A stretch of DNA of 64,000 nt, taken from contig PLXZ01000001.1 in the NCBI GenBank assembly GCA_003151615.1, positions 352,124 to 416,123 on the forward strand, given 5' to 3'. Source of the DNA: Candidatus Tayloriibacteriota bacterium. Lineage in GTDB: Bacteria; Patescibacteriota; Minisyncoccia; Phycocordibacterales; PALSA-1337. The notes under the pieces are model-generated. The model had not been told where the DNA came from and did no database searches. It saw nothing but the letters and a program-made list of their open reading frames with translations. A program made the position numbers and the translations under genes. Below are positions 1-41,880 of this stretch, in pieces (position 1 is the stretch's first letter; every line of letters begins with the position of its first letter).

Positions 1-688
1 ATGACGATGATGCAGACGAGGGTTATGCTATCGTTTGGCAGTTTTTCCCACAGGGTGCTAATGATCCGGGACAATTGGTCGGCAATGACCAGTTTTTTGA
101 AGAAGCCCCACATGATTCTCTCGAGACCCCTTCTGGCCTTTATCCAATTGAAGCTGTGGCCGAGCGAAAGTTGGGGAAGGAGATGCTGAGGACGTTCGAT
201 AGGTCCCGCGACAAGTTGGGGAAAGAACATGACGTAGAGGGCGTAGGTCAGATAATTTCGTTCAGGCTTGTATTTTTTCCGATACACCTCGACGATGTAG
301 CCGAGGCTCTGGAATACATGAAAAGAAAGTCCCAATGGCAGGACGATTTGAAGAAGAAACGGCGAATAATTAAAATCGAGGGCGTGCGCCAGAGCCGTGA
401 CGTTTTCGTTGAAGAAATTGAAATATTTGAAGAAGAAGAGCGTGCCGACGTTTGTGATGACGCTTATTACCACAAACCATTTTCTCTTTCTGCCATCGTT
501 GCGCTCGATGGCGAATGCCAGGAAATAGTCGACGGTAATGAGGAAAAAAAGAATCAGAATATACTTCGGAACGAACGACATGTAGAAATAACAGCTGGCG
601 ACGAGCAGAAATATGCGGCGGTAACCCGCGGGGATGATCCAATAGCAGATGAAGACGACGGGGAGAAATATTAAATATGAAAGTGAAT
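1..688 (-). CDS. MBOAT-family membrane O-acyltransferase (DltB/AlgI-like). N-terminal ~229 aa lie in the window; the C-terminus runs off the window start.
   Basis: Hand translation of the minus strand from the ATG at 686-688 gives MLFDSLSYLIFLPVVFICYWIIPAGYRRIFLLVASCYFYMSF...YVMFFPQLVAGPIERPQHLLPQL... with no stops to position 1. This is hydrophobic and multi-TM, with the FFPQLVAGPIERP stretch typical of AlgI/DltB MBOAT proteins. It is not in the supplied ORF track, presumably because it has no stop in the window. It starts 20 nt downstream of the SDR stop. Confidence 0.7.
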
Positions 689-708
689 CGAAAAGCATGC
701 AGTTGGTA

Positions 709-1476
709 TTATGGATTTATGGGAGTGTATTCCTCCGCGACTACATGAGTGAGGATCTGTTCGTCCTGCGCCGCATCACTGCAAAGATATGAAATTTTCT
801 CCGCAATATCAAGGTCGGAGGTCGTTTTTTTCGATGGATTTTTCAATCGGGCCATTTCCTTGAATGCCGCCGGAATGTCGCTGTTCATGCCTCCGGACAT
901 AAAGCCGGGCGCCACGGAATAGACCCTGACATTTGCCGATTTTAATTCCTCCTTCAACATTGTCAAGACTCCCTGCAATGCCCATTTTGCCGGAATATAT
1001 GCGCCAAGTCCGCGGCCAAATTGAGGCGAGATAACACCGACTGTCGTGATTCCGACGAGCACACCCGTTTTTTGTTTTTGCAAAAGTTTTCCGCACTGTG
1101 AAAGCACATTGAAACTGCCCATGAGATTCGTTTCCAGTTGACGTTCCATTTCATCGGCCGAAGTGTCGAGCAATGATTTTCTGTCGGGCTTCAAACCGGC
1201 GGCGTGCACGCATGCATAGGGAAGTCCCATCTCTTTTTCAATCAAGCCAAGGGTGGCGGCAACTTCCGAAGCATTTTTCATATCGCAACGATATGCGCGA
1301 TGACCTTCTCCCGCGAGTGTTTTGATAAAATGAGCGGCGTCTTTTTCCGTCGAATGATGAAACAATGTGACTATTGTCATGCCGTCCTGCGCCAGCCGCG
1401 TCGCGACGGCTTTGCCTGCATACCCCAGTGCTCCGGAAACAACGGCTATGCGATTTTTTCCGTTTACTTTTTGCAT
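709..1476 (-). CDS. Short-chain dehydrogenase/reductase (3-oxoacyl-ACP-reductase-like)
   Basis: 255 aa. N-terminal Gly-rich Rossmann segment VVSGALGYAGKAV and a YxxxK catalytic pair (AYIPAKWAL). Sits in an operon with the ACP and the FkbH-like gene. Confidence 0.7.
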   Translation of the reverse strand: MQKVNGKNRIAVVSGALGYAGKAVATRLAQDGMTIVTLFHHSTEKDAAHFIKTLAGEGHRAYRCDMKNASEVAATLGLIEKEMGLPYACVHAAGLKPDRKSLLDTSADEMERQLETNLMGSFNVLSQCGKLLQKQKTGVLVGITTVGVISPQFGRGLGAYIPAKWALQGVLTMLKEELKSANVRVYSVAPGFMSGGMNSDIPAAFKEMARLKNPSKKTTSDLDIAEKISYLCSDAAQDEQILTHVVAEEYTPINP

Positions 1477-1486
1477 GCCATTATTT

Positions 1487-1711
1487 TTATTTTTTCTGGC
1501 GGTCGACTATTTTCCGTATGTCTCCGATTGATTTGGCGTTCGTCACTTCGTCCATGGTAAAGGACACGCCGTATTCCTTTTCAAGTTCGGCTATGAACAT
1601 GAGGTAGTTCATTGAATCCCAGTCGGGAATATCCTGCGGAGTCAGGTCGTCGCGGATGACAGCAGGATCAATTTTCAGTATTTTTGACGCAATCGCATTA
1701 AATTTTTCCAT
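1487..1711 (-). CDS. Acyl carrier protein (DltC/ACP-like)
   Basis: 74 aa, acidic, with the DWDSMNYL motif containing the conserved Ser for phosphopantetheinylation. Its end overlaps the FkbH-like gene. Confidence 0.7.
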   Translation of the reverse strand: MEKFNAIASKILKIDPAVIRDDLTPQDIPDWDSMNYLMFIAELEKEYGVSFTMDEVTNAKSIGDIRKIVDRQKK

Positions 1712-2792
1712 GTTTTGTTTGTACCCAGCGCGGAGCCGAGATTTTATTTGTGACTTTTACCGTTCCGTTTTTAAAATTGGCCTCGATGAAGGTCTTGGCC
1801 GGGGCATTTTTCTCGCTTTCCTTGAAGGAAATTGAAATGTCAGAAGCCCCCTCATTGTATGCTTTCTTCATGATTTCCGCAAAAAAGGCGTCTTCCACGC
1901 CCCGCCCGAAGACGCGGCAACTCATAAGGAGCGATTTGATGTGCCAGTTTTTTCCATCAGCATTTTTGGCGCCGTCCTTTTTACCGTTCTTGTTTTTTTC
2001 AATCACCGCGGAAATAATCAAGCCGCTGTCGCCGAATTTGTCGGACAATTTTCCGTGCAAAACTGTGTGCGAAGGGTCGCGCATGAATTGCTTCATTTGT
2101 TCCTCCGTGAATGGCTGTTTGAGATTGTTGAATTGATTTGTCTTTTCGGAGAGTTGTGACAGGCGGGGAATGGAGCTCTCATCGTTTTCATGGATGAGCA
2201 GTTCAAGGTCCAGGGATTGGAGAAAATCTTCTTTGTTTGTGTGTGACTTTTCCTCTTCTTTTCGTAGGCGTTCTGTTACGTACAGATTTCCGCGCATTTT
2301 ATCCTCGTCAGTAATTACTTTTGAATCGAAGTAGGTGAGGGAATTAAGGAATCGCGCGTATTGGCGCGGATCGGCCGGCAGTTCAGGCACTTCAACTTCA
2401 GGGACAAGAGCCTTTACCATTTCGCGATTCGTGGAATCGTCATCAAGGAAAACCATGGAATCAAGTCCGATGTTCAGTTCCTTCGCCAGTTCGCGGATGT
2501 TGGCCGCCTTGTCGTTCCAGTTGATGCGATGCGCGGCAAAATGGTTCTCTTTCAGTATCATATTCGGGTGAGTTTTGATGACCTGCCATGCGTCGGCGGG
2601 ATTGTTGCGGCTGTTGATCGCCAAAATGATGCCGCGGTCATACAGGTCAAGTATCGCCTGCTGGAACGCCAAAAAACTGTTTCCGGGTGCGGTGACCGAA
2701 AGCTGGATATTTTCCATGCCGTCTTCGCCGATGATTCCTCCCCAGAGGGTGTTGTCCAGATCAAGAACCAGGCATTTTTTCATAGTTGCCAT
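1698..2792 (-). CDS. FkbH-like HAD-superfamily (IIIC) phosphatase / ACP-loading enzyme
   Basis: 364 aa. N-terminal LVLDLDNTLWGG, the HAD motif I characteristic of FkbH-domain proteins. Adjacent to an ACP. Confidence 0.65.
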   Translation of the reverse strand: MATMKKCLVLDLDNTLWGGIIGEDGMENIQLSVTAPGNSFLAFQQAILDLYDRGIILAINSRNNPADAWQVIKTHPNMILKENHFAAHRINWNDKAANIRELAKELNIGLDSMVFLDDDSTNREMVKALVPEVEVPELPADPRQYARFLNSLTYFDSKVITDEDKMRGNLYVTERLRKEEEKSHTNKEDFLQSLDLELLIHENDESSIPRLSQLSEKTNQFNNLKQPFTEEQMKQFMRDPSHTVLHGKLSDKFGDSGLIISAVIEKNKNGKKDGAKNADGKNWHIKSLLMSCRVFGRGVEDAFFAEIMKKAYNEGASDISISFKESEKNAPAKTFIEANFKNGTVKVTNKISAPRWVQTKHGKI

Positions 2793-2812
2793 ATTTTAAG
2801 GCAAAAATCAGG

Positions 2813-3169
2813 TTAAGGCAATTGCAGGGCGATCGCGCCGGCGATATTTTTGGTGTGTGAAATTGAAAGGGATACGTTGACGCGTTTTCCGTTTTTGTAT
2901 GCGACGGGCATGCCGCTTTTTTCATGACGGATTTCGATTTCGACGAAGGGATATTTGGCGGTGCCGAGCGCTTTGCTCGCCGCTTCTTTTGCCGCGAATA
3001 TACCGGCCAAATGCGTTTCAGGATTTTTATATGCGAAGCAATAGTCAATTTCGTGGGCGGAAAAGACTTTTTTCAAGAAGGCCGATTCTTTTGCGCGGGC
3101 ATGTTTTTTGAAACGGCTTATTTCCACGAGGTCAAAGCCGATGTTTCTTTTTTGCGTCATGATTTTCAT
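2813..3169 (-). CDS. acpS: Holo-[acyl-carrier-protein] synthase (4'-phosphopantetheinyl transferase)
   Basis: 118 aa. NIGFDLVEISRF N-terminal motif and the size typical of AcpS. Confidence 0.7.
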   Translation of the reverse strand: MKIMTQKRNIGFDLVEISRFKKHARAKESAFLKKVFSAHEIDYCFAYKNPETHLAGIFAAKEAASKALGTAKYPFVEIEIRHEKSGMPVAYKNGKRVNVSLSISHTKNIAGAIALQLP

Positions 3170-3183
3170 ATACTATCAGAAAT

Positions 3184-3963
3184 CTATTTTACGAACCAAA
3201 AACAGCCGCAGGCGTAGTGTTCGGCGTCGGCCATTTTTGGGTCGGCGTTGGCGATGAGACCGCCCGAACTTTCTTTAATAAGTGAAAATTCCTTCAACTT
3301 TAATGCATTCGGACCTTTCGTGAACATATCCATAATCTGGGCGTAGGAATAAATGCGGTGTGCATTGAATTCGATGATTGGCTTGCCGACGGGGGTGACG
3401 AAAAGAAGCGAACCGCCGCGGGCGACGACGCGTTTTAGTTCTTCAATTGCCTTTATGTCGCCATTCGGGTCAATCGGATCGCCGTAGCGTCCGAGGCCGA
3501 TATGTTCAACGGTATGCATGCATGAAATGGATTCAACGCTGTCGGCGGCGAAGGGAAGTTTCATTAAATCGCCTTTATGACTGGTGAGGCCGTCGAGCCC
3601 TGACAATTCTGCCGGGCGATAATCATAGAATTCAGTCGGAATGAATGCCGACATATGCGTGCAGAAATAGAGGCTCGAACTTATGTCGATATGTTTTTTC
3701 GGATTGATGTCGCGGACTTTTCGGATGGCCCATGCCGTATGATAGACATAGTGTCGATCGAAACTTGTCGTAATAGTTTTATCTTTTATTTGAGGATGCG
3801 CATCGCGGAGCGATAATTTGAAACGTTTTTCACCCGGAGCCTTTTTAAATCGTATATAGTCGCCGATAATAAACGGAGTCAGAATAATTCGCATCGATTT
3901 TTTTATGAAAGGTTTAAGTCGATTCATTTGCGTATTATTTAAGGGGAGTGTACTCGCGGACAT
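3184..3963 (-). CDS. Putative SAM-dependent methyltransferase (DUF268-like)
   Basis: 259 aa, resembling the DUF268 / class I methyltransferase family. Weak call from composition and context only. Confidence 0.35.
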   Translation of the reverse strand: MSASTLPLNNTQMNRLKPFIKKSMRIILTPFIIGDYIRFKKAPGEKRFKLSLRDAHPQIKDKTITTSFDRHYVYHTAWAIRKVRDINPKKHIDISSSLYFCTHMSAFIPTEFYDYRPAELSGLDGLTSHKGDLMKLPFAADSVESISCMHTVEHIGLGRYGDPIDPNGDIKAIEELKRVVARGGSLLFVTPVGKPIIEFNAHRIYSYAQIMDMFTKGPNALKLKEFSLIKESSGGLIANADPKMADAEHYACGCFWFVK

Positions 3964-4654
3964 TTATGTCGAGTACTCTCGCCGCCGTATCCTGATAAAT
4001 GGTATTCACAACGGTATTCGCAACAGGTTTGTATCCAATCGATTCCATGTACGGGTTGAAAATATCATCATAACGTTGGCCAAGTTCAGATCGTTTGTAT
4101 TCAAGTGTTTCGATCACGATAAAATGTGGTCGGTATTTGTTCCAATCATTGCTTTTCAAAACTTCCATATCGTAACCTTCGGTATCGAGCGTCATCACGT
4201 CAACGTTTTTTCCTGAAGGAATATTGTTTTTGAAAATAGTTGAGAGCGGCTTGACCGGAACATCAATCGTATCAATCAATTTGTGGCCCATGTTTTTGTT
4301 TTTCTCGGCAAAAGCATAATCGAATGTATTGAGAGTGTCCTCATCGAATCGGTAATATTTCATGGATGTTTCTTTTGGGCCCACACCAATTGCAAGATTT
4401 ATGTCTCGCGCGCGTTTCTTTTTGAAAGCACCGATTTTTTTAAGATTTGGTTCTATGTTGATGCCGTGCCAGCCGGATTTATATAGAAGATACGTATTAT
4501 TAAATTTTTTTGGATGATTCGCACCGATATCGATATACATGCCGTCCTTTTTTCCTTCAAGAAGCAGGGATAAGATCAAATCTTCTCCGAGTTGGCTGTG
4601 GATGATTTGTATTCCGAAGAGGCGGAAGATAACCTTGCTGAAGAGTGATGTCAT
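3935..4654 (-). CDS. FkbM-family methyltransferase
   Basis: 239 aa. YIDIGANHPKKFNNTYLL, the DIGAN.G motif of FkbM-domain methyltransferases. Confidence 0.6.
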   Translation of the reverse strand: MTSLFSKVIFRLFGIQIIHSQLGEDLILSLLLEGKKDGMYIDIGANHPKKFNNTYLLYKSGWHGINIEPNLKKIGAFKKKRARDINLAIGVGPKETSMKYYRFDEDTLNTFDYAFAEKNKNMGHKLIDTIDVPVKPLSTIFKNNIPSGKNVDVMTLDTEGYDMEVLKSNDWNKYRPHFIVIETLEYKRSELGQRYDDIFNPYMESIGYKPVANTVVNTIYQDTAARVLDINVREYTPLK

Positions 4655-4666
4655 GCGAGTATAGTA

Positions 4667-5614
4667 CTATTTCCGGCCGATTATCTCAAGAAATCTTTGT
4701 GCGCTCCGTATATCGGTTAGATTTTTCATACAGTATATTCGAGGGGTGAATTTCGGAAGTTGTTGCAGAAATTTTTTGAAGTCGGGTTTGAAATCGACAG
4801 CGGTTGTGAACGTCATTCCCGATTCCGGGCTGAGGTACGGTGAACTTATCAATGAATCCTTCCAAGAATATTTTTGATATTTCCAGACTCCCGGATTCCA
4901 GACGAGCGTCGGTACGTCGCGAATCCATGCTTCCTGAAGGGCAATGCCTTGGCTTTCGGAAGGGGAAAGGTAAATCATCCAGTCGGCCTTTTCAAGCGCA
5001 GAGAAATAATCAGATTGCCTGAAATTTCCGTATTCAAAAATGGTATGGTTTATTTTTTTTGCCTCAAGTTCGCGTGCGACCGTTTCTCTGATTTCAGGTG
5101 TAACTGATTTACAATAAATAATGCCATGGCCATTTTTTCGATTGCTTGCGGGGACATCTGAACGTACGCCGGCCGGCCAGACTTCAATTTTGTTTTTAAA
5201 ATAAGGGTCGATGCTGGAGAAAAAATCCTTCGTCCATTGGCCGGGAAATACAATCGTATCGATGAGAGGATTTTTGAGAATCGAATTATGGTCTTCGGGC
5301 ACGACGGATATTGCGGGTCCAGCGATGAGCCGAGCAATTTTACCTTTCCGTTTTAATTTTAAAGCCCATTGCAGGGTGCGTGCCCCGCTCACCACGTGGA
5401 CGATGAAATCTTTTTCGATTTGGTGTGGCATTGAGTGCGGAACGAAGAAAGGATTGAGTCGGTGCGGAACGCCAAGCTCAATGAGTCCACGTGATAGGCT
5501 TTGCGCCACCATTTCGGGTCCGCGTCGTTTGCCGGTGATTTTTCCGGCATAATATTTGAGCCATTCGCTGTTGAACGGATGGAAGCCAATCGGTTTTGTA
5601 AGAATTATTATCAT
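4667..5614 (-). CDS. Putative glycosyltransferase (GT-B-like), function unknown
   Basis: 315 aa. C-terminal SESQGIALQEAW resembles the E-x7-E region of GT-B glycosyltransferases. Sits in the glycan locus. Confidence 0.35.
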   Translation of the reverse strand: MIIILTKPIGFHPFNSEWLKYYAGKITGKRRGPEMVAQSLSRGLIELGVPHRLNPFFVPHSMPHQIEKDFIVHVVSGARTLQWALKLKRKGKIARLIAGPAISVVPEDHNSILKNPLIDTIVFPGQWTKDFFSSIDPYFKNKIEVWPAGVRSDVPASNRKNGHGIIYCKSVTPEIRETVARELEAKKINHTIFEYGNFRQSDYFSALEKADWMIYLSPSESQGIALQEAWIRDVPTLVWNPGVWKYQKYSWKDSLISSPYLSPESGMTFTTAVDFKPDFKKFLQQLPKFTPRIYCMKNLTDIRSAQRFLEIIGRK

Positions 5615-7350
5615 GAAAATTTTATTAGTTTTCTCCGTATCTTTTTTATTTTAAGATGCACCCAAATAGCCCAGACGCGTACATTTTGTGTGTAATGCAT
5701 TGAAGTAAACCGCCTTCTCCATGGATGAGGAAATGGATTTCTAAAGACATCCCGATAAATATCAATAAAATTATCCATCTGTTTATGAAGCTCATATTTT
5801 TCCGCAAACCTTCGCTTTGCTTTTTTGCGCATGTCTGCGTGGTATGCCGGATCATCAAAATGATGCTTAAGTTCAGTCGCGTAGGCGTCAACAGTATCAA
5901 CAACTTTTCCTGCATATCCGATGCATTCGGCATGGCCGTTGTTGACAGGGGAGATATGGCTTACGATCGGTGTTCCGAAATATAATGCCTCGGCCATAGC
6001 CTGCGAGTTGACTTCTCCGTCGCGTCTGCCATGTGCGTATACGTCCAATGTATTGAGGAATTTAAAAATTTTCTCCGAGTCACCGGTGGCCGGTAAGAAA
6101 AAAATATGCTTAATGCCGAGCTTCGTGGCCTGTTTCCGATATAATTCTGAACCCCCGAGCATAATATAAGCTGTTTTGTCATTTTCAATTCTGGCATATG
6201 CGGCGAGCGGAATTTCCGAATATGTATTATTGTCAGGTCGCTGGTGCATGCCAAAAATAAAGGTTTTCTCCAGACCCAGTTCTTTGCGGAAATTGCCGTA
6301 GTCTTTCGCCTCGATGCTTATAGGCAAAGATACAAGTACAATCCTGCTTTTATCACCCCCTCTTTTTATCCAGCCATCGGCGCTCCATTGGCAAATATGC
6401 ATAACACGGGAAATATTGAACTGATTATCAGAGCCGGATGCCAAGTGAAGCGAATCGACAATTGATGTTTTTCTGATCTTGGTAAAAGGGTATTCCTTGT
6501 GTCCTGCTTTACCTGTCTGGATAATATCATATTTTGTTTCATCAAATGTTTCCCAGAAATTAGTGTCAATCCATCGGTGTGTCGGCACAGTTATATCCTT
6601 GGCACCGACGTGGAATTCAATCAGATTGACTCCATGATCTTTCATAAATTGCACACGAAACGGATCGGTATCCATATGCCGATAATCAGAACCGACATAA
6701 GGCGCAGTTCCGCAATAATAGTAGTCGACTTCAAACTCGTTTTTTGGCAGATTGGCTGCGATAATCTGGAGAAATTTTTCCGTTCCACCCGCAGAGAGTC
6801 CACCGAATTTTATGAAGGCAATACGGATTTTTTTATTTTTCGTATTTTTTAACGAAGGTATTATGAAGTTAAGAGTCTCCAGTGGTTTATTCGCAGTTAT
6901 ATGGATTTGCGTGCCGATGCCGAAGTTTTTTGCCATTTGAAGGTCTTCTATGCTATCGCTGATAAATAATGACTGAGCAAGATCAATTGGATATTTTTTT
7001 AGGCATGTTTTAAGCATACCAGGTTTTGGTTTACGACAGTCGCATATATTTTTTTCATGTGGGCAATAAATGACATCAAGTAATTTAATATCATGTACTT
7101 CAAATTGTTTTTCCATATGACTATGGATTTTAAGTAAATCTTTTTCAGACATAAGGCCGCGGGCGATACCTCGCTGATTGGTAACAATGATAAATTCAAA
7201 ATTTTGCACTGCAAGATTTTTGAGTACCTCAATAATGCCAGGATTTAGGACGAAATCCTCGGTCTTGGTGATATAACAATGCGGTGCCGGAAGACGGTTG
7301 ATTACGCCGTCGCGATCAAGAAAGGCTATTTTTTTGCGGTTTTTTTCCAT
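5611..7350 (-). CDS. Bifunctional HAD phosphatase (GmhB-like D,D-heptose 1,7-bisphosphate phosphatase) fused to a glycosyltransferase-like domain
   Basis: 579 aa. N-terminus FLDRDGVIN...VTNQ...CDCRKPKPGML matches the GmhB/HisB-type HAD phosphatase, with the DxDGV motif and the zinc-binding CxC. The C-terminal ~400 aa is a separate sugar-transferase-like domain. Confidence 0.55.
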   Translation of the reverse strand: MEKNRKKIAFLDRDGVINRLPAPHCYITKTEDFVLNPGIIEVLKNLAVQNFEFIIVTNQRGIARGLMSEKDLLKIHSHMEKQFEVHDIKLLDVIYCPHEKNICDCRKPKPGMLKTCLKKYPIDLAQSLFISDSIEDLQMAKNFGIGTQIHITANKPLETLNFIIPSLKNTKNKKIRIAFIKFGGLSAGGTEKFLQIIAANLPKNEFEVDYYYCGTAPYVGSDYRHMDTDPFRVQFMKDHGVNLIEFHVGAKDITVPTHRWIDTNFWETFDETKYDIIQTGKAGHKEYPFTKIRKTSIVDSLHLASGSDNQFNISRVMHICQWSADGWIKRGGDKSRIVLVSLPISIEAKDYGNFRKELGLEKTFIFGMHQRPDNNTYSEIPLAAYARIENDKTAYIMLGGSELYRKQATKLGIKHIFFLPATGDSEKIFKFLNTLDVYAHGRRDGEVNSQAMAEALYFGTPIVSHISPVNNGHAECIGYAGKVVDTVDAYATELKHHFDDPAYHADMRKKAKRRFAEKYELHKQMDNFIDIYRDVFRNPFPHPWRRRFTSMHYTQNVRVWAIWVHLKIKKIRRKLIKFS

Positions 7351-7945
7351 CTTGTCGAATAATTAAGTCGTTAAAATAATCCTGAAAATATGAAGTGAGA
7401 AGATGGAGAATTGCATGATGGATGCTTTCAACCATTGCGTATGCTCCTTTTCCCGTCTTTACGACCACCTTGGCGTCCGCAAGCTGATTGAGTTTGCCGC
7501 CGTCAAAGCCCGATAATCCGATAACAGGCACATGATTTTTGTTTGCCAGTTCAACCGCCTTGATGACATTGCTAGAATTTCCGGAGCTGCTGATGGCAAT
7601 TAGACAATCTGTTTCCTGTAGATAATTTTGAAGTGGTCCGGCGAATATCATATCGAAGCCGATGTCATTAGCCCATGCTGTAATCTCAGTTTCTGTTGAA
7701 GGTAGTCGTACCGCTTGAAATCTTCGCATCTTTCGGTCAAGATTGTTACCGAATACTGTTTTATTAAAATCTCCTACCCAATGTGTTGCGATTGCTAGAG
7801 AACCTCCATTTCCGAATACATAAATTCGGCCATCCCGTTCGTAGACGGACTTGATAATATTGATGGCACGGGAGATTTCCTCCTTTGGCAGAGCGGCCAG
7901 ATGATGTGACAGTTCTTCTGTAAAATTTTCGATATAGTTAAGCAT
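7316..7945 (-). CDS. gmhA: Phosphoheptose isomerase (SIS domain)
   Basis: 209 aa. YVFGNGGSLAIATH, the SIS-domain signature of GmhA. Confidence 0.65.
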   Translation of the reverse strand: MLNYIENFTEELSHHLAALPKEEISRAINIIKSVYERDGRIYVFGNGGSLAIATHWVGDFNKTVFGNNLDRKMRRFQAVRLPSTETEITAWANDIGFDMIFAGPLQNYLQETDCLIAISSSGNSSNVIKAVELANKNHVPVIGLSGFDGGKLNQLADAKVVVKTGKGAYAMVESIHHAILHLLTSYFQDYFNDLIIRQDGKKPQKNSLS

Positions 7946-8957
7946 GATCGTTGTTGGCGGTATTGAAAAGCACGTCTGCCCCTGAATTGGTAAGCATGAA
8001 GTTAATCAGTCGGGAATCTTTAAGACCGAAAGATTCGGCGACAGAAGAAAGTTCCTGCCTGATCGCGGCATGTTTTTTCGGGGGGGCTAGGAAGAGTAGA
8101 CATCCTCCGCCCCCTGCGCCGAGAACCTTGCCGCCCCAGGCACCTTTTCGTAGGGCACTTTCATACAGAGCATCTATTTCACCACCGCTCATTTTCGAGG
8201 AAAGCTTTTTCTTCCATGTCCATGCATGGTGAAGCATTTCTCCAAGGGCTTTGAAATCTCCGGCGATAAGTTTATCCCTGAATTCATAAACGGAATCTGA
8301 CATTTTTTTGTATATTTCAAAATTTTCTTTAATTTTTGATTTTTGTTCCGAAAGAACGCTGCTCGCCGATCGCGTTATTCCCGTATAAAAAAAGAGCATA
8401 TGTTCTTCGAAGTCTGCCTGTGTCTTGAAATCAACAAAAACCGGTTCTACCGTTACCGTATCGTCTTTATTGAATTGAAAGATATTGAGACCACCGTACG
8501 CAACGGCATATTGATCCTGTTTTCCGATAGGTTCCTTAAGGATATCTATTTCTAGTTTACACGCCTCCCGGGCGACTTGCTCTTTGCTGATTTTTTTCCC
8601 TTTATTTGCATACAGTGCTTTTATTAAAGCAACTGAAAAGCTTGAGGATGATCCGAGCCCGGTTTTCGAGGGTAAATCAGCAAATGATGCGATTTCCATA
8701 CCGCCGCTTCTGATCCCGACCTCTTTGAGGGCTTCACGAAATCTGTTGTGTTGGATATCGTCAATATTTTTTACGATCTCGGTTTGAGAATATTTAAGCA
8801 TGAATTCATTAAGAAATTCAGCATGATTGATTACGACGTAGACATATTTATCTATCGTAGTTGAAATAACACGACCAGGGTATTCGCTATAAAAATCCTT
8901 TATGTCCGTTCCTCCTCCAACAAAACTGATCCTCAATGGAGCCCTAGAGATAAGCAT
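7938..8957 (-). CDS. hddA: GHMP kinase, D-glycero-alpha-D-manno-heptose 7-phosphate kinase-like
   Basis: 339 aa. N-terminal PLRISFVGGGTD and a GHMP motif region (SKTGLGSSSS). Confidence 0.6.
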   Translation of the reverse strand: MLISRAPLRISFVGGGTDIKDFYSEYPGRVISTTIDKYVYVVINHAEFLNEFMLKYSQTEIVKNIDDIQHNRFREALKEVGIRSGGMEIASFADLPSKTGLGSSSSFSVALIKALYANKGKKISKEQVAREACKLEIDILKEPIGKQDQYAVAYGGLNIFQFNKDDTVTVEPVFVDFKTQADFEEHMLFFYTGITRSASSVLSEQKSKIKENFEIYKKMSDSVYEFRDKLIAGDFKALGEMLHHAWTWKKKLSSKMSGGEIDALYESALRKGAWGGKVLGAGGGGCLLFLAPPKKHAAIRQELSSVAESFGLKDSRLINFMLTNSGADVLFNTANNDHA

Positions 8958-8999: not shown

Positions 9000-9665
9000 T
9001 TAGCGGCGCTTGAATACGAGAACGTTTGGTTCGAACCAAATGGTCACAAATTTTCCGGAAATTTCTGCCTGATGGATTTCAGATTTCAATGCTTTGGTCC
9101 GAGCCTCGTCGAGGGTAAAATTAACCCGTGCAAATTGTTTTTTCCACCATTCAGGCTTTTGTTCATTAACGTGAGCGGTGCCACCTTGTCCTGGCTGAGC
9201 GGCTGTAAGAACGACAGTGTCCGAAGCGTCAGTCAATATCTTTATATAGTTATTGGTATACAAACGGTCGACATGTTCAGCTACTTCGATCGAGATAGCT
9301 ACATTCCACTTTCGATTGAATGCGTATGGCTTGCGAAGATCGTGCATAACGACAAATTTTTTATCGACTGCTAGGGATTCGAATGCGTGCGGACTACCCT
9401 CCAAACCGAATACATCGGTGATACCATTTTCAAGACAATATTTTAGATAATGTCCCGTTCCGCATCCTATGTCCGCCAAACTGTGAAATCCTACAACTTT
9501 CTGCAGAGCTGGAATAAACCATCCGGCCATCTTCAAGCCTTCCAATTTGTTTTCTTTAAAAAATTCATTGTCGTAAATTTTGAGATTATAGTTATATCCA
9601 AAATGGGTAGACAGGTTGTAAAGTTTCTTTCTGACGTTATAAAAGTGTTGTTTAAGCGAAGTCAT
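9000..9665 (-). CDS. Class I SAM-dependent methyltransferase
   Basis: 221 aa. LADIGCGTGHYL SAM-binding motif I. Confidence 0.55.
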   Translation of the reverse strand: MTSLKQHFYNVRKKLYNLSTHFGYNYNLKIYDNEFFKENKLEGLKMAGWFIPALQKVVGFHSLADIGCGTGHYLKYCLENGITDVFGLEGSPHAFESLAVDKKFVVMHDLRKPYAFNRKWNVAISIEVAEHVDRLYTNNYIKILTDASDTVVLTAAQPGQGGTAHVNEQKPEWWKKQFARVNFTLDEARTKALKSEIHQAEISGKFVTIWFEPNVLVFKRR

Positions 9666-9673
9666 AAAATATT

Positions 9674-10435
9674 TTATTTAATAATGTTTCTTTCTATTAT
9701 ATCTTTATTTATTCGCCGAGCCAAATCTTGGGCTTCCTCATAACTTTTCGGTGTACCGATATCAAGCAAGGGTTCGTCAGTTGAGTTCATGAGATAGACA
9801 TATATCGGGATACCCGCTTCAAGTAGGTAAGGGAATACGTGATGACCAAAATCTAGGGGCGTCTGATTTCTATCAAGATAATCAAATATTGATTTGTTCA
9901 TAATGTATATACCCGCATTCGCATCGTGGGTTGTGATTTGTTCAGGTTTAGGTTTCTCAATAAATTGCAAAATTCGGTGATTCTGGTCAAAACGGATGAT
10001 ACCTTTCATTTCTGGTTTCGGTTCCTTATAGCTTGCAATCGTGACCATAGCGCCATGATTTTTATGTTCAATGAGCAGTTTTGTGTAATTGATGCCGGTG
10101 AGATTATCTCCATATGTAATGAAAAAATGATCCGTGTCTTTAAAAAAATCAATGTTACTGCGAAGTGTTCCGGCGCTTCCTAAAAGTTCTGGCTCAAATG
10201 ATGTTCGTATCAACATATCAGGGTTTTGCATAGAATAATTTTTGACAAAGTCATTAATCTGATCCGCAAAATAATGGGTGTTGATCAAGATTTCATTGAT
10301 TCCATGTTGGCGAAGGCTGTCGAGATGATACTGAAGCAAAGGAATTCCGGCAACAGGCAGCAGAGGTTTCGGGGTTGTGTTAGTAAGAGGACGCAATCGT
10401 GTTCCCAGTCCTGCAGCCAAAATGAGGGCTTTCAT
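9674..10435 (-). CDS. Sugar-phosphate nucleotidyltransferase (HddC-like heptose 1-phosphate guanylyltransferase)
   Basis: 253 aa. N-terminal MKALILAAGLGTRLRPLT, the NTP-transferase signature. Lies beside gmhA/hddA/gmhB. Confidence 0.6.
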   Translation of the reverse strand: MKALILAAGLGTRLRPLTNTTPKPLLPVAGIPLLQYHLDSLRQHGINEILINTHYFADQINDFVKNYSMQNPDMLIRTSFEPELLGSAGTLRSNIDFFKDTDHFFITYGDNLTGINYTKLLIEHKNHGAMVTIASYKEPKPEMKGIIRFDQNHRILQFIEKPKPEQITTHDANAGIYIMNKSIFDYLDRNQTPLDFGHHVFPYLLEAGIPIYVYLMNSTDEPLLDIGTPKSYEEAQDLARRINKDIIERNIIK

Positions 10436-10444
10436 AAATAAATG

Positions 10445-11431
10445 CTATTTTATATTTTTAAAAAATTCGTACGACGAAGACACCATGTCCTTAATGTCAG
10501 TGTGTATAGGTTTCCAATTCAGATTTATCTGGGCGGCAGTTGAATCAGCTACGAGGCTCGATGGGTCTCCTGGTCGGCGGGCTTTGACCGTGAACACCAC
10601 TTTTTTACCTGAAATTTTCTCAGCTGTCTTGATGAGTTCGAATACCGAAAAGCCCTTATTGATACCGAGATTATATTGCTCGACGAGGGTTTTTTGCTCG
10701 AATAGTCTTTTCATTGAAAGCGTGTGTGCAGTTGCCAAGTCAGAAACATGTATGTAGTCGCGGATTCCGCTTCCGTCTGGTGTGGAATAATCATCACCAA
10801 AAACAGTAAATTCTGAACGTTGACCTAGTAGTGTTTGTACGATGCATGGAATCGCATGAGTTTCCGGAGTATGATACTCGCCGAGCTTGGCTTCGTTGTC
10901 ACAGCCAGCCGCACAAAAATAGCGCAATGAAATGGAAGAAATTCCGTATGCTGTGAAATAGTTTTTAAGCATGATTTCGAACAATAGTTTCGTGTAACCG
11001 TAGGGATTTGTGGGATATTTTTGGTGATCCTCTTTTATAGTCGCCGATTGAGGTTCTCCGTAAACAGAAGCTGATGAGGAGAATACGATGTACTTAGTTT
11101 TGTGTGCTCGCATGCATTCGAGCACATTGAGTCCACCGACAACATTGTTTTCGTAGTATTCGAATGGTTTGATGATGGAATCAGGCACGCTAGCAAGCGC
11201 TGCAAAATGCATAACAGCATCAGGTTTGACTGAGGCAAAAATATCCATTAATGCTGATTTGTTACGGATGTCGCTCTGATGATACGAGATGGCTGGATCG
11301 TCGATAATATTTTTTCGTGACTGGCTAAAATTATCAACAACTACGATTTTATAGTCACCTGCCTTTTTAAGAGCATGCACTGCGTGTGCCCCTATATATC
11401 CCGCTCCGCCCGTAACGAGTATTGTCTTCAT
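10445..11431 (-). CDS. galE: UDP-glucose 4-epimerase
   Basis: 328 aa. ILVTGGAGYIGAH Rossmann motif and the length and architecture of GalE. Confidence 0.7.
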   Translation of the reverse strand: MKTILVTGGAGYIGAHAVHALKKAGDYKIVVVDNFSQSRKNIIDDPAISYHQSDIRNKSALMDIFASVKPDAVMHFAALASVPDSIIKPFEYYENNVVGGLNVLECMRAHKTKYIVFSSSASVYGEPQSATIKEDHQKYPTNPYGYTKLLFEIMLKNYFTAYGISSISLRYFCAAGCDNEAKLGEYHTPETHAIPCIVQTLLGQRSEFTVFGDDYSTPDGSGIRDYIHVSDLATAHTLSMKRLFEQKTLVEQYNLGINKGFSVFELIKTAEKISGKKVVFTVKARRPGDPSSLVADSTAAQINLNWKPIHTDIKDMVSSSYEFFKNIK

Positions 11432-12503: not shown

Positions 12504-13424
12504 TTACCATGCGTATATTTTATGGCTCGTGTGGAAATAACGGTAGTCGGGCCTGATGCCAAGGATTATATCCTGAATTTCCTTTGGATGCCGCGGATCG
12601 TGGTAGGTGCAGATGGCGAGACGCGGCTTGAACCGGCGAATCGTTTCCGCCGCGCCGCGTAATGCATCACATTCGGCACCCTCGATGTCCATTTTAATGA
12701 AGTCGATTTTCGGGATTTTTTCGGAGGCGACAACAGTGTCTATTGTTGTTACAGGAACTACAACTCCTTCTCCGGTAGAAACAGGAGAGGAACCGCCTGC
12801 ACTGTCGATCTGAAATTTGAATTCAATCGTGCCTGTTTTGTTTCCGAGGGCTTGCGGCATTGTTTTTATGACTGAAGACATTTTATTGAAGGACGCAGAC
12901 ACGTCGATGATGTCGCGGGCTTCCCGTATCGGCTCGAATGAAAATACTTTTCCGGTTGGTCCGATTTGGATCGCGGCATGGAGGGAAAATACGCCGATGT
13001 TCGCGCCGGCGTCGATGACCCAGTCGCCCTTGCTCAAGTTGGCACCGCCGACTTCGTATGATCCTTCCTCTACGATGACTGGCACGGGGAACATGACTTC
13101 GGTCGGATATATCACGTCATAATACACAGAGAGAAAGCCGAGCATGAACGTTTGCCGATCGTAAAGTTTTTTTGGAATTTTGAGCGAAAAATCACCGCAT
13201 GAAACCAGGATATCATTGTCTGGTTTTTTATTTTCGGGCGTCGGTGAAAAATATTTTTGAAGGTAGAGGTGCGTGCGCGAATAGCGCGTCTCAGCGGATA
13301 CGGTCAAATAGTCGAAAATATATTTCCAAGGATGTTTTCGAGGTTCGATAATAAGTGCCGGAACGATAATGCAGGTACTTGATGCAATCCAGGCGGCGCG
13401 GCGGGCTATTTTTTGTAAATTCAT
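12504..13424 (-). CDS. FkbM-family methyltransferase with an N-terminal TM segment
   Basis: 306 aa. IDAGANIGVFSL motif, with an N-terminal hydrophobic helix. Confidence 0.55.
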   Translation of the reverse strand: MNLQKIARRAAWIASSTCIIVPALIIEPRKHPWKYIFDYLTVSAETRYSRTHLYLQKYFSPTPENKKPDNDILVSCGDFSLKIPKKLYDRQTFMLGFLSVYYDVIYPTEVMFPVPVIVEEGSYEVGGANLSKGDWVIDAGANIGVFSLHAAIQIGPTGKVFSFEPIREARDIIDVSASFNKMSSVIKTMPQALGNKTGTIEFKFQIDSAGGSSPVSTGEGVVVPVTTIDTVVASEKIPKIDFIKMDIEGAECDALRGAAETIRRFKPRLAICTYHDPRHPKEIQDIILGIRPDYRYFHTSHKIYAW

Positions 13425-13451: not shown

Positions 13452-14294
13452 TTACAGCGAAAGGATTTTCTTCAATTTTGCCTTGAAACTCGACGGAAGC
13501 GTCCGGCTGAGGATTTTATAGAGTGGATTTTTTGTGAAGACAATTTCGCCACTGCGGTTTTCGAGGGCCTTTACGGTTCTTTCTTCGACGGCGTTTTCTG
13601 AATCATATGCGTTCGTGCTGATTTTATTGGTGATGAACAATGCTGAACCCGATTCGCCGGTGCCATCATTTTCCTGGTGTGCAACACGGAAACCTTTCTG
13701 TTCCAGGAAAGAGCGCAGATTGCCCGATGTCGTAGCCTCGTTATACGTGCGGTCGTCTTCATTTATTTCCAAAAAAAGGGATGAAGTGTTTGCGAGCAGG
13801 GGAATTGCACCTTTTAAGATAGGAAGTTCAAAACCCTGCGCATCAATCCAGAGAAGGTCTATGTGGATATTTTTCAGTTCGGCAATCGAATCGAGTCTCC
13901 TTACTTGGACGTTATGCGTTTTTTCAAGTTTGATGTGCGCATCCTCTTTTATTTTCAAAAGGGAATCGTTTCCGGTGATGTTTGCTTCATATAGAATGGC
14001 GGACCCGTTTTCCTCGCCACAGGCATAATCAAAACATTTTACGCGGGGATTATTGGAATAGCGTTCTTTAAGGTATTTAAAGTTTGTCGGGTTTGGTTCA
14101 AAGGCCCAGATTTTCGAATTCGGCCATTTCAAAAAGGATCGAATTTCATCGCCATGCCATGCGCCGACGAGCAGGACGTTCATGTCATCAGCCGGTTTTT
14201 TTGAAAGCATTGCGGGTAAATTGGCTTCGACGTCCATTTGGAAGAGTTCGTAATTGTAGATTTTTTTGCCTTGGAACGTTCTGGTTTTGTACAT
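13452..14294 (-). CDS. FkbM-family methyltransferase
   Basis: 280 aa. LLVGAWHGDE...AFEPNP, resembling the FkbM methyltransferase domain. Confidence 0.45.
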   Translation of the reverse strand: MYKTRTFQGKKIYNYELFQMDVEANLPAMLSKKPADDMNVLLVGAWHGDEIRSFLKWPNSKIWAFEPNPTNFKYLKERYSNNPRVKCFDYACGEENGSAILYEANITGNDSLLKIKEDAHIKLEKTHNVQVRRLDSIAELKNIHIDLLWIDAQGFELPILKGAIPLLANTSSLFLEINEDDRTYNEATTSGNLRSFLEQKGFRVAHQENDGTGESGSALFITNKISTNAYDSENAVEERTVKALENRSGEIVFTKNPLYKILSRTLPSSFKAKLKKILSL

Positions 14295-15275: not shown

Positions 15276-16568
15276 TTATAATATTGATTTGACTACTTTG
15301 TATGCGTGCGCGCGGATTGAACGCGAGGCGAGCATCGAAATCGGAATGATCGAATATGAAATGAGAGTGGCATAGGCCGAGCCCATTATTCCAAAGCGGG
15401 GAATGAAGACAAGGTTAAGTATAACATTCGAGATTGCCCCGGCGAGCGCGCTCATAAAAATGGCAACGCGATGATTTTCGGCGGTCAGGTAATTGGTGGC
15501 CGCCATGCCGATCGAATAGCCGATGCCGGCCCAGACGTATATGCTCAAAATGATCGCGCTTCCGGCGTATTTGCTTCCGTATAAAATCGATATGATGAAG
15601 CCCGAGAGGAAATGGATCGGCAATGCGAACAAAAGCGCAACCGCCGCGATTAGGATGAAAAAGTAAAAGAGCCGGCGCTCGTAACTCCCATTGTTCATGG
15701 TGCGTGCGTTTACGATGGCAGGGAAGAGTGAAGTTATGATGACGCCCGGAACAAAGTACCAGACTTCGGCGATGTTTTCTCCGACCGAATAAATGCCGAC
15801 GGCGGTGGCGTTGAGCATATGTTCAATCATGATTTGGTCGATGCGCGTATAAATGATTGAAAAGGCGGCTGCAATCATAAACGGCCACGAATCGCGCAGA
15901 AGAAGTGTTGCGGTCGAGCGCGTGCTTGTCCAATTTCGAACCGGTGCGTAACGAGAATATGCATATATATAGAAGACCGCATACAAAATCGGCTCAATCA
16001 ATGCCACCGCGGCCAGATAGTAAATGCCCTTATTGAAGAAAACAATGCCGATTTTCAGTATTGAAAGGATGACGACCGTGACGACCTGTACGATCGTTAT
16101 TTTTTTCGACACGACTTTTGCCTGGAAATAAAAATTTAAAGTCTGGAGCGGTGTAAAAACAAATGTTGCGCCAATGATGAGTACGAGAGATGAAATAAAC
16201 CAATTATGGTCGATGGTAAGAGTAGTGATGGCAAGTCCGGCATACGCGACGAGTCCGCCGAAAAATTTCAGCGTTATCGCGGAGCCGAGCAAGTCGGCTT
16301 CTTTTTCCGGATACTTGATCAGTTCGCGATAAATAATCTGATCAATACCGAGGTTCGCCACAAACGAAAAAAGTCCGACGATGCCAATCGCATAGCTCAA
16401 TAGTCCGTAGTTGTTCGGACCGAGATATCGCGCGACGTAGGTCGACACGAAAAAGGCGATGACCAGCGTGAATATCCGGCCGAGAAAAAGCCAGCTCGTA
16501 TTGGAGGCGTATCGCTTGAAACCGTGGGATTGGACGAAGCCCGAAGTCTTTTGTATAAGTTGTTCCAT
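15276..16568 (-). CDS. Polysaccharide flippase (Wzx / MOP superfamily)
   Basis: 430 aa with ~12 predicted TM helices. The N-terminal region is typical of Wzx/PST-family exporters. Confidence 0.6.
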   Translation of the reverse strand: MEQLIQKTSGFVQSHGFKRYASNTSWLFLGRIFTLVIAFFVSTYVARYLGPNNYGLLSYAIGIVGLFSFVANLGIDQIIYRELIKYPEKEADLLGSAITLKFFGGLVAYAGLAITTLTIDHNWFISSLVLIIGATFVFTPLQTLNFYFQAKVVSKKITIVQVVTVVILSILKIGIVFFNKGIYYLAAVALIEPILYAVFYIYAYSRYAPVRNWTSTRSTATLLLRDSWPFMIAAAFSIIYTRIDQIMIEHMLNATAVGIYSVGENIAEVWYFVPGVIITSLFPAIVNARTMNNGSYERRLFYFFILIAAVALLFALPIHFLSGFIISILYGSKYAGSAIILSIYVWAGIGYSIGMAATNYLTAENHRVAIFMSALAGAISNVILNLVFIPRFGIMGSAYATLISYSIIPISMLASRSIRAHAYKVVKSIL

Positions 16569-16608
16569 TTTTCCTGGCGTTTATTTACTATGCTATACTA
16601 TTTTGACC

Positions 16609-41622: not shown

Positions 41623-41736
41623 TCTAAGCTAGGGTACATGGACTGATAGCCAGAATTGAGCTATCATAACCAGTGACAATTTAATATGTTTTTATGGCCT
41701 AACCCTCTTGGTTTTCCAGGAGATATGGTCAAAATT

Positions 41737-41880
41737 CCCGCTAGAGATCAAAAGACTCCTCGTCAGAGTCACTCTAGCGGGTCGTAACTGGAAACGGTTA
41801 CGGGCAGGGCCGAAAGGTTCTGTCGCGATGGCGAGGAGCCTTTTGCTACTCGGTTCTCACCATTCTTAAACCCCGCTAGA
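41737..41880 (+). promoter_or_regulatory. Structured 5' leader with three copies of CCCGCTAGAG/CTCTAGCGGG allowing alternative pairings; the last copy abuts the start codon
   Basis: Direct at 41737-41746, reverse complement at 41773-41782, direct at 41871-41880. There is a nested GACTC/GAGTC hairpin, a CGTAAC/GTTACG hairpin (41785-41804) and a GAAA-tetraloop hairpin CAGGGCC-GAAA-GGTTCTG. Confidence 0.4.

Follow-up and report, generated by a model that had tools for sequence, protein, structure and literature searches.

Among the described pathways that pair an MBOAT acyltransferase with an SGNH protein, only the Dlt system depends on a carrier protein, whereas the rest are acyl-CoA dependent (PMC12148441). 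The acyl group has been shown to be carried by an FxYxxF motif, which sits on the microprotein DltX in Dlt but in PatA and other pathways forms part of the MBOAT itself (PMC12148441). FkbH enzymes use 1,3-bisphosphoglycerate to make glyceryl-acyl carrier protein (glyceryl-ACP; PMC7489565), and in nonribosomal peptide synthetase modules they "stand in place of A domains" (PMC8949500). The same substitution had been proposed for DltA in a first-pass annotation of a 64,000-nucleotide stretch of DNA (hereafter the window) from a Candidatus Tayloriibacteriota bacterium (contig PLXZ01000001.1, positions 352,124 to 416,123 of the forward strand), which described five genes at one end of the window as a Dlt-like cassette. 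That five-gene observation is real and no chance pattern. The cassette, followed here beyond the window edge, probably encodes an MBOAT/SGNH system that O-acylates a surface glycan and depends on a carrier protein, with an FkbH-type enzyme in place of DltA.

All five genes are found within positions 1-3169, co-directional and closely packed on the minus strand:

2813-3169, minus strand: AcpS, 118 aa (TIGR00516, TIGR00556, PF01648)
1698-2792, minus strand: FkbH-domain protein, 364 aa (TIGR01686, TIGR01681)
1487-1711, minus strand: ACP, 74 aa (PF00550)
709-1476, minus strand: classical, ketoreductase-like short-chain dehydrogenase/reductase (SDR), 255 aa (PF13561, PF00106, PF08659)
1-698, minus strand: N-terminal 232 residues of an MBOAT protein (MBOAT1), identified by its open frame and its identity to locus L001

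The MBOAT1 frame, which runs off the window edge and would have had to be abandoned had it contained stops, is open over all 232 codons; its start lies at 698, so that the end first given for it, 688, was slightly short. An exact look-up of the FkbH protein led to a 333-kb metagenome contig (European Nucleotide Archive ERZ27254241 k141_1209207, locus L001), the reverse complement of which matches the window over all 12,792 shared bases (100% identical). Beyond the window edge, L001 carries the rest of MBOAT1, a 383-aa protein, a MaoC protein, a second MBOAT (MBOAT2), a 380-aa paralogue of the 383-aa protein, and GT11 and GT2 glycosyltransferases. Both the full MBOAT and a DltD-like SGNH partner, for which the first-pass annotation had suggested extending the contig, were recovered in this way:

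L001 12095-13558: full MBOAT1, 487 aa, 765 nt of the gene lying beyond the window edge
L001 13563-14714, directly after MBOAT1: SGNH1 partner, 383 aa, DltD-like
L001, beyond the window edge: MaoC dehydratase, 142 aa (PF01575, 73.4 bits)

Two MBOAT/SGNH pairs are thus present on L001, with the MaoC gene standing between them. From AcpS through the 380-aa gene after MBOAT2 the intergenic gaps range from -14 to +23 nt (-14 to +20 nt among the five genes of the window), the ACP gene overlapping the FkbH gene by 14 nt. The cassette had been taken for a self-contained unit at the distal end of the glycan locus; instead it comprises about ten genes, runs past the window, and is followed by the GT11 and GT2 genes.

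The assignments of FkbH, ACP, AcpS, SDR and MBOAT were all confirmed in searches with hidden Markov models (HMMs). AcpS matches TIGR00516 (acpS) with 63.3 bits (cut-off 59.8), TIGR00556 with 70.8 bits and PF01648 with 52 bits, and would convert the dedicated ACP from its apo to its holo form. The ACP itself scores 25.7 bits against PF00550 (cut-off 20.8) and has a WDSM motif, in which Ser33 is the presumed phosphopantetheine site. The FkbH protein passes the curated FkbH threshold (TIGR01686, 302.2 bits, cut-off 146.65) over profile positions 2-316 of 323, and scores 82.5 bits against TIGR01681 (HAD-IIIC). It has an N-terminal HAD-IIIC phosphatase domain and a C-terminal GNAT-fold acyltransferase domain with Cys292, lacks the FkbH_N domain (PF21211) carried by longer homologues, and contains a 12-residue insertion (KNGKKDGAKNADG) relative to its relatives. 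The HAD half matches PDB 3SLR, the uncharacterised B. fragilis protein BF1531 (E 1e-42), and in an AlphaFold2 (AF2) model residues ~190-360 (pLDDT 80-95) resemble GNAT folds (Foldseek E ~3e-5, TM to target 0.55-0.73).

The catalytic residues, the loss of which would have spoken against the first-pass reading, are all kept, from DxDxT and the remaining HAD motifs to the invariant Cys of the SCR motif. Across 18 homologues (62-70% identity) D11-x-D13-x-T15, S61, K95, D117-D119 and C292 (MSCR) are invariant, and SCR recurs in 81/81 related loci, though it was absent from the scan pattern. This Cys of the C-terminal domain is what we take, from the OzmB work, to be the acyl-carrying residue. By analogy with characterised members of the family, the enzyme would use 1,3-bisphosphoglycerate and produce glyceryl-S-ACP. 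No AMP-binding enzyme was found among the called genes 10 kb either side of the cassette, where the FkbH protein holds the loader position; this supports the proposal that an FkbH-type loader has replaced the D-alanine ligase.

On the membrane side, the window fragment of MBOAT1 alone gives 21.7 bits against PF03062 and 41.5 bits against the DltB model TIGR04091, while the full protein reaches 98.3 bits against PF03062. Its best solved relatives are DltB structures (6BUG/8JEM, E 2e-28), with the histidines of WHMSLS and G(L/F)WHG aligned. Against the TIGR04091 DltB equivalog it scores 163 bits over 5-386, and because this is far under the cut-off of 375, MBOAT1 is to be regarded as a DltB homologue and not an orthologue. 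Its C-terminus is ~80 residues longer than that of DltB. MBOAT1 ends in FIYFKF and MBOAT2 in FIYFQF, both of which correspond to the FxYxxF acyl-shuttle motif; there is no separate DltX-type microprotein in the cassette, the motif being fused to the C-termini of both MBOATs. The cassette therefore joins a fused shuttle motif with a dedicated carrier protein.

Searches of Pfam, NCBIfam and PDB sequences gave no match for the 383-aa partner, which is not detectable as DltD by sequence. A word-indexed search gave 41 relatives, "hypothetical" at best, one of them in Candidatus Nomurabacteria. In the partner alignment neither S80 (GTSR) nor H340 varies, and D337 and N98 hardly do. SGNH enzymes show this Ser / Asn / DxxH pattern, and the protein is accordingly assigned to the SGNH type. 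It is membrane-anchored, retains the Ser, and has DltD among its best structural matches. Its family also includes the 380-aa protein encoded after MBOAT2 (hhalign E 1e-54). When 1.84 billion cluster representatives were searched in full with an HMM, 3,885 fell within the family at E <= 1e-3, and at E <= 1e-30 the number was 1,300; large as it is, the family has no curated Pfam or NCBIfam model.

How widely is this arrangement shared? FkbH homologues number >7,994 at E < 1e-20, the nearest named ones being Patescibacteria proteins called "HAD-IIIC family phosphatase". From the scan, 80 loci were taken, one genome per species, and their genes were annotated with jackhmmer, the cassette's own proteins serving as seeds for the profiles. 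Genes within 9 kb of FkbH were counted in 81 loci:

ACP: 75/81 loci, mostly immediately downstream of FkbH
SDR: 38/81 loci
MaoC: 26/81 loci
AcpS: 20/81 loci, directly upstream of FkbH, including the closest ones (L002-L005 and L009)
MBOAT: 19/81 loci, from very different phyla

In those closest loci (Patescibacteria, Saccharibacteria, Paceibacterota) the order is AcpS-FkbH-ACP-MaoC, then SDR except in L009, where the sole SDR detected lies ~7.5 kb upstream. In L002 and L004 an MBOAT comes after these genes; the contigs of L003 and L005 are short. AcpS is also found upstream of FkbH in L082, L084, L085 and L087, and AcpS-FkbH-ACP-MaoC-SDR-MBOAT-partner is complete in L082 and L084. The gene order AcpS-FkbH-ACP-MaoC-SDR-MBOAT-SGNH was found repeatedly, in many Patescibacteria. 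The linkage was also approached from the MBOAT side, with three homologues (52-53% identity) picked only for lying on long contigs outside the FkbH hit list. All three (3/3) are embedded in the same cassette, one of them (L085) with a long FkbH and no SDR. The top 120 FkbH and top 120 MBOAT matches have 31 longest contigs of equal size in common, and 14/25 partner-family contigs >=6 kb are shared with the FkbH or MBOAT list.

More distant MBOAT-linked loci occur in Nitrosopelagicus (L030; Thaumarchaeota), Micrarchaeota (L008), Phenylobacterium, Sphingomonas rustica, Reyranella, Kiloniella spongiae, Acidobacteriota, Ignavibacteriaceae, Leptospiraceae and Bacteroidota. An FxYxxF-type C-terminus is present in 14/19 linked MBOATs, and those of L053 and L066 have a variant of it, IVYKxF, at their ends. 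The partner profile gave no significant hhalign match to the proteins downstream of the linked MBOATs in Sphingomonas and Leptospiraceae, and for this reason those proteins are not counted as members of the family. Conservation of the neighbourhood, a check proposed in the first-pass annotation, thus held across many genomes from both the FkbH and the MBOAT side: the linkage is strong both ways within the Patescibacteria clade and recurs in distant phyla.

Two cultured alphaproteobacteria, Sphingomonas rustica HF-S3 (L070 8798-14854) and Kiloniella spongiae MEBiC09566 (L075), share a shorter arrangement, ACP-FkbH(625 aa, with FkbH_N)-MBOAT(FIYFNF), followed by an unannotated protein of ~360 aa. 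A possible link between the Sphingomonas rustica ACP-FkbH-MBOAT genes and the L-glycerate ester of gellan, or glycerate esters of sphingan-type polysaccharides, was considered, and nothing usable was found in the literature.

Which acyl group would such a system transfer? The MaoC protein carries the hydratase-2 motif FSRVSGDVNPLH. The SDR scores 103.6 bits against PF13561, 85.7 against PF00106 and 38.4 against PF08659 (ketoreductase, KR), and ~111 bits against FabG models, under their cut-offs; in eight cassette SDRs G15, G21, Y160 and K164 are invariant, the catalytic serine position holds Thr/Ser, and YxxxK is intact. Glyceryl, lactyl and hydroxy-acyl esters had all been entertained in the first place, and of these lactyl is now the most likely final group, since a MaoC dehydratase belongs to the cassette. 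In formal terms glyceryl-ACP is a 3-hydroxyacyl thioester, and MaoC dehydratases naturally act on compounds of this class. The dehydrated product would be 2-hydroxyacryloyl-ACP, the enol of pyruvoyl-ACP, so that the SDR, as either a ketoreductase or an enoyl reductase, would give lactyl-ACP. In the trans-AT polyketide synthases (PKSs) for bryostatin (BryA) and FR901464, loading modules of the type FkbH-DH-KR-ACP (DH, dehydratase) have reportedly been proposed to give a D-lactate starter. A table entry for an FkbH loading module reads "1,3-bpg + ACP -> D-lactate-ACP" (PMC7901079). Lactyl is the leading candidate for the transferred group, at a little under an even chance; a group other than lactyl or glyceryl is doubtful, and unmodified glyceryl somewhat more so.

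A related alternative is that what this machinery hands on is glyceryl (2,3-dihydroxypropanoyl) left unmodified, or glyceryl as well as lactyl by way of the two MBOAT/SGNH pairs; if glyceryl alone were transferred, the SDR and MaoC would have some other substrate, such as a sugar nucleotide, or serve in a proofreading step. Glyceryl-ACP is indeed the sole experimentally established FkbH product (PMC7489565, PMC8949500), and outside Patescibacteria many FkbH-ACP-MBOAT loci are short of an SDR, MaoC or both (neither is present in L038, L053, L070 and L074, and MaoC is missing from L059). The two pairs here, and the two SGNH paralogues in L082, would also fit the transfer of glyceryl or of both groups, and a methyltransferase dependent on S-adenosylmethionine (SAM), encoded between FkbH and MBOAT in some loci, suggests O-methyl-glyceryl. 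On the other hand, ACP-MaoC-SDR-MBOAT is the conserved core order in the closest relatives, MaoC and the SDR both retain their catalytic motifs, and glyceryl-ACP falls within the substrate class of MaoC. For the present cassette this alternative is given a small chance, although glyceryl transfer is a real possibility, especially outside Patescibacteria.

The SAM-dependent methyltransferase genes lie at L038 11135-12085 (Phenylobacterium) and L058 9864-10757 (Bacteroidota), and suggest O-methylglyceryl variants of the transferred group in those loci. In L085 (4215-9671) the order is AcpS-FkbH(574 aa)-ACP-MaoC-MBOAT-partner, with no SDR; if MaoC acts on glyceryl-ACP there, the group passed on would not be lactyl.

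The machinery, with lactyl as the acyl group, is proposed to work as follows. AcpS would prime the dedicated ACP, and the FkbH enzyme would capture glycolytic 1,3-bisphosphoglycerate, take off the 3-phosphate and load glyceryl on the ACP. The MaoC dehydratase would then remove the 3-OH to give 2-hydroxyacryloyl/pyruvoyl-ACP, and the SDR would reduce the dehydrated C3 unit to lactyl-ACP. At the cytoplasmic face, the MBOAT would take the acyl group from the ACP and pass it to the Tyr of its own C-terminal FxYxxF at the outer face, where the Ser of the membrane-anchored, DltD-like SGNH protein would receive it and esterify a hydroxyl of a Wzx/Wzy-made, heptose-containing, methylated glycan. From the protein families, catalytic residues, partner fold, shuttle motif and linkage described above we infer the substrate, the acyl group, the ACP-to-MBOAT hand-over and the acceptor. 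The original functional reading, esterification of the co-encoded glycan with a glycerate-derived group, is both supported and extended, each computational check suggested with it having turned out favourably; the biochemical function is deduced from gene content and context.

Outside this cassette, the FkbH-ACP module leads elsewhere as well. In Clostridium moutaii (L034), FkbH-ACP(-MaoC) is followed by a GNAT, and genes for a CMP-sugar synthetase, for NeuB and for a Maf-like protein stand beside it in what resembles an island for flagellin glycosylation; in Staskawiczbacteria (L020) by an Antibiotic_NAT-like protein and a methyltransferase; and in Parabacteroides (L062) by a FabH-like enzyme and a glyoxalase-fold protein. 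In C. jejuni, cj1302 is by annotation an FkbH-domain gene within the flagellar glycosylation locus (PMC7099621). These soluble outlets, together with cj1302, indicate that FkbH-ACP is a general glycan-tailoring donor module and that MBOAT/SGNH is one of several outlets.

Several observations weigh against the proposed FkbH-to-MBOAT route. With the motif fused, the MBOAT architecture is that of the acetyl-CoA-using PatA/AlgI type, and the MBOAT could be an ordinary O-acetyltransferase. The ACP resembles fatty-acid-type ACPs and not DltC, its best solved relatives being ACPs (2LML, E 8e-8). There is no MBOAT nearby in 62/81 FkbH loci, where GNAT, Antibiotic_NAT-like and FabH-like enzymes provide other outlets. 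The strict hydratase motif is kept in only 14/27 MaoC hits, and the L085 cassette, with MaoC and no SDR, indicates that the lactyl route is not universal. The HAD half of the FkbH AF2 model is poor and of low confidence, and no active-site geometry is drawn from the model for that reason. The MBOAT2 gene (L001 15170-16659) is interrupted by a 1-nt frameshift at ~15766, caused by one missing G in a G-run (TGGG-ATTC); TGGGGATTC would restore ...AWGFFKKMVVAD... and a full-length protein ending in FIYFQF. The split may be an assembly error, a real frameshift or pseudogene, or a slippage-prone site. The function is read from genes, the acceptor polymer is proposed from its neighbourhood, and the ACP-to-MBOAT hand-over is suggested by gene linkage together with the lack of another acyltransferase.

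Might the cassette then consist of two unrelated, adjacent modules? The FkbH, ACP, MaoC and SDR genes would supply acyl-ACP to a transfer reaction in the cytoplasm, such as the N-acylation of an amino sugar or of a nonulosonic acid, and the MBOAT/SGNH pairs would be acetyl-CoA O-acetyltransferases resembling PatA/PatB or AlgI/AlgJ. The fused FxYxxF, typical of acyl-CoA-using systems, would suit this, as would cj1302 in its flagellin glycosylation locus and the predominance of FkbH-ACP loci without MBOAT, in which soluble acyltransferases follow beside NeuB, CMP-sugar synthetase and Maf. However, this cassette, L082, L086 and L087 have no soluble acyltransferase, which would leave the acyl-ACP without an outlet. 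The L082 cassette stands outside any glycan locus, between D-Ala-D-Ala ligase, a surface protein and glucose-6-phosphate dehydrogenase, with one MBOAT and two SGNH paralogues (hhalign E 2e-55, 2e-60), and holds no other acyltransferase to unload the ACP. Moreover, the blind-picked MBOATs of this subfamily are all inside the cassette, with gaps of a few nt, and the position of MaoC between the MBOAT/SGNH pairs makes the two sets interleaved and not merely adjacent. The conserved linkage of ACP, AcpS and an ACP loader in the operon also argues against an acyl-CoA donor, as far as gene order can indicate. The separate-modules explanation is accordingly considered unlikely, though it deserves to be kept in mind, and acylation through the FkbH-loaded carrier is preferred.

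An FkbH enzyme with a dedicated ACP is also a hallmark of polyketide, tetronate and methoxymalonyl-ACP pathways (PMC7489565), of which the cassette might be a fragment. The surroundings make this very improbable. No ketosynthase (KS), acyltransferase (AT), FabH-like, FkbK-type (HCDH), FkbI-type (acyl-CoA dehydrogenase) or FkbG-type gene lies 10 kb either side, and none of FkbK, FkbI, FkbG (O-methyltransferase), FabH-like tetronate enzymes or PKS is found among the L001 genes or in the window's neighbouring 16 kb. The KS/AT or other PKS genes that would have undone the first-pass annotation are thus missing both within 8 kb beyond the window edge and upstream of the cassette. The likely host, as placed by named homologues, is a small-genome, Patescibacteria-like organism, and what surrounds the cassette is glycosyltransferase, Wzx, Wzy_C, heptose-nucleotide and methyltransferase genes. 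The PKS-fragment explanation was rejected on this gene content. The glycan locus in the window comprises:

15276-16568, minus strand: Wzx
16459-18825, plus strand: Wzy_C/TPR protein
several positions in the window: GT2 glycosyltransferases
7316-7945: SIS isomerase of a GDP-heptose-type set
7938-8957: GHMP kinase of the GDP-heptose-type set
5611-7350, minus strand: HAD phosphatase-GT1 fusion, one 579-aa open reading frame, GmhB-like (PF00702/PF08645) plus GT1
9674-10435: nucleotidyltransferase of the GDP-heptose-type set
10445-11431: epimerase of the GDP-heptose-type set
3184-3963, 3935-4654, 9000-9665, 12504-13424 and 13452-14294, all minus strand: five methyltransferase genes

The methyltransferases, at least five in all (those listed being DUF268/Methyltransf_11, three of the FkbM family, and one Methyltransf_23), point to a heavily methylated glycan. 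Most simply, the acceptor is the glycan encoded alongside, but it need not be encoded next door, since the L082 cassette stands alone.

On the opposite strand of L001, past the cassette and the glycosyltransferase genes, are a SWIB-domain gene and a TrwB-like gene (L001 19511-21095, minus strand, just past the glycan locus), encoding a 77-aa SWIB-domain protein and a TrwB/DUF87-type ATPase with a long proline-rich tail. The window holds one further feature, unrelated to the cassette:

41696-41824, plus strand: LOOT RNA (Rfam RF03000), 82.4 bits, gathering cut-off 46.4, full model length

No paper linking FkbH with MBOAT in glycan acylation was found, subscription-only papers being outside the search; the claim that this is not a characterised pathway agrees with the searchable papers, in which no description of the combination was found. 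Papers that pair FkbH with MBOAT came up and were set aside, as they concern unrelated steps of suomilide and aeruginosin biosynthesis. The parts come from known families and follow the logic of Dlt; what is new is the combination of loader type, acyl group, on-carrier tailoring and fused shuttle motif. Whether these loci form a second, phylogenetically broad class of carrier-protein-dependent envelope acylation (FkbH-ACP-MBOAT-SGNH, fed by 1,3-bisphosphoglycerate and yielding O-lactyl, O-glyceryl or O-methylglyceryl esters of surface glycans) is evenly balanced. Such a class would span Patescibacteria, Thaumarchaeota, Alphaproteobacteria, Acidobacteriota, Bacteroidota and Leptospiraceae.

Why would this matter? 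If true, the biosynthetic route to the ester and its gene set would be previously undescribed, the ester would be a new class of glycan ester made from a glycolytic intermediate with no ATP-dependent activation, and the donor side of MBOAT/SGNH machines would prove modular. The SGNH component, a large family of ~3,900 clusters at 50% identity with no Pfam/NCBIfam model and so far unannotated, would gain a function. Episymbiotic candidate-phyla bacteria depend on surface contacts, and the cassette would offer a rare handle on the chemistry of candidate-phyla cell surfaces. The idea lends itself to direct tests, both in vitro, where five small soluble proteins are needed, and in those carriers of the related gene set that can be cultured.

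The closest counterpart remains Dlt, which likewise encodes a dedicated phosphopantetheinylated carrier beside an MBOAT and a membrane-anchored SGNH protein. The nearest solved relative of the MBOAT is DltB, with histidines aligned, the partner counts DltD among its best matches in structure, and both systems have a Tyr-containing FxYxxF shuttle motif. The differences begin with the loader, which is the adenylating ligase DltA in Dlt and an FkbH HAD/GNAT enzyme here, and with its cargo, D-alanine in the one case and, as proposed, a glycolytic C3 hydroxy acid in the other. The shuttle motif, on DltX in Dlt, is here fused to the MBOAT; the carrier is ACP-like and not DltC-like; and MaoC and the SDR are proposed to act as tailoring enzymes on the loaded carrier. 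At the level of sequence, MBOAT1 stays below the DltB equivalog cut-off and the partner is undetectable as DltD.

In having an MBOAT with a fused C-terminal FxYxxF and an SGNH partner, the cassette resembles systems of the PatAB/AlgIJ type. Unlike PatA/PatB (peptidoglycan), AlgI/AlgJ/AlgX (alginate) and WssH/WssI (cellulose), however, it has an ACP, AcpS and an ACP loader built into the operon. With the FkbH/OzmB glyceryl-ACP systems it shares a complete FkbH domain that passes the curated cut-off, the HAD motifs together with the invariant Cys, and a dedicated ACP immediately downstream. It differs from them in its glycan-locus context, in the missing FkbH_N (PF21211), in having no FkbK/FkbI/FkbG, and in that there is no hand-over to a KS, a FabH-like enzyme or a condensation enzyme. 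The FkbH-DH-KR-ACP loading modules reportedly comprise the same four activities, with 1,3-bisphosphoglycerate proposed to be converted to lactyl-ACP; here these activities reside in discrete proteins (a MaoC hot-dog protein and a classical SDR), and the product would go to a glycan and not to chain extension. Finally, the nonulosonic-acid and flagellin islands (cj1302; Clostridium moutaii L034) likewise use an FkbH-ACP(-MaoC) module for glycan tailoring, but there a soluble cytoplasmic N-acyltransferase of the GNAT type acts on a sugar precursor, whereas here an MBOAT/SGNH machinery would act outside the membrane.

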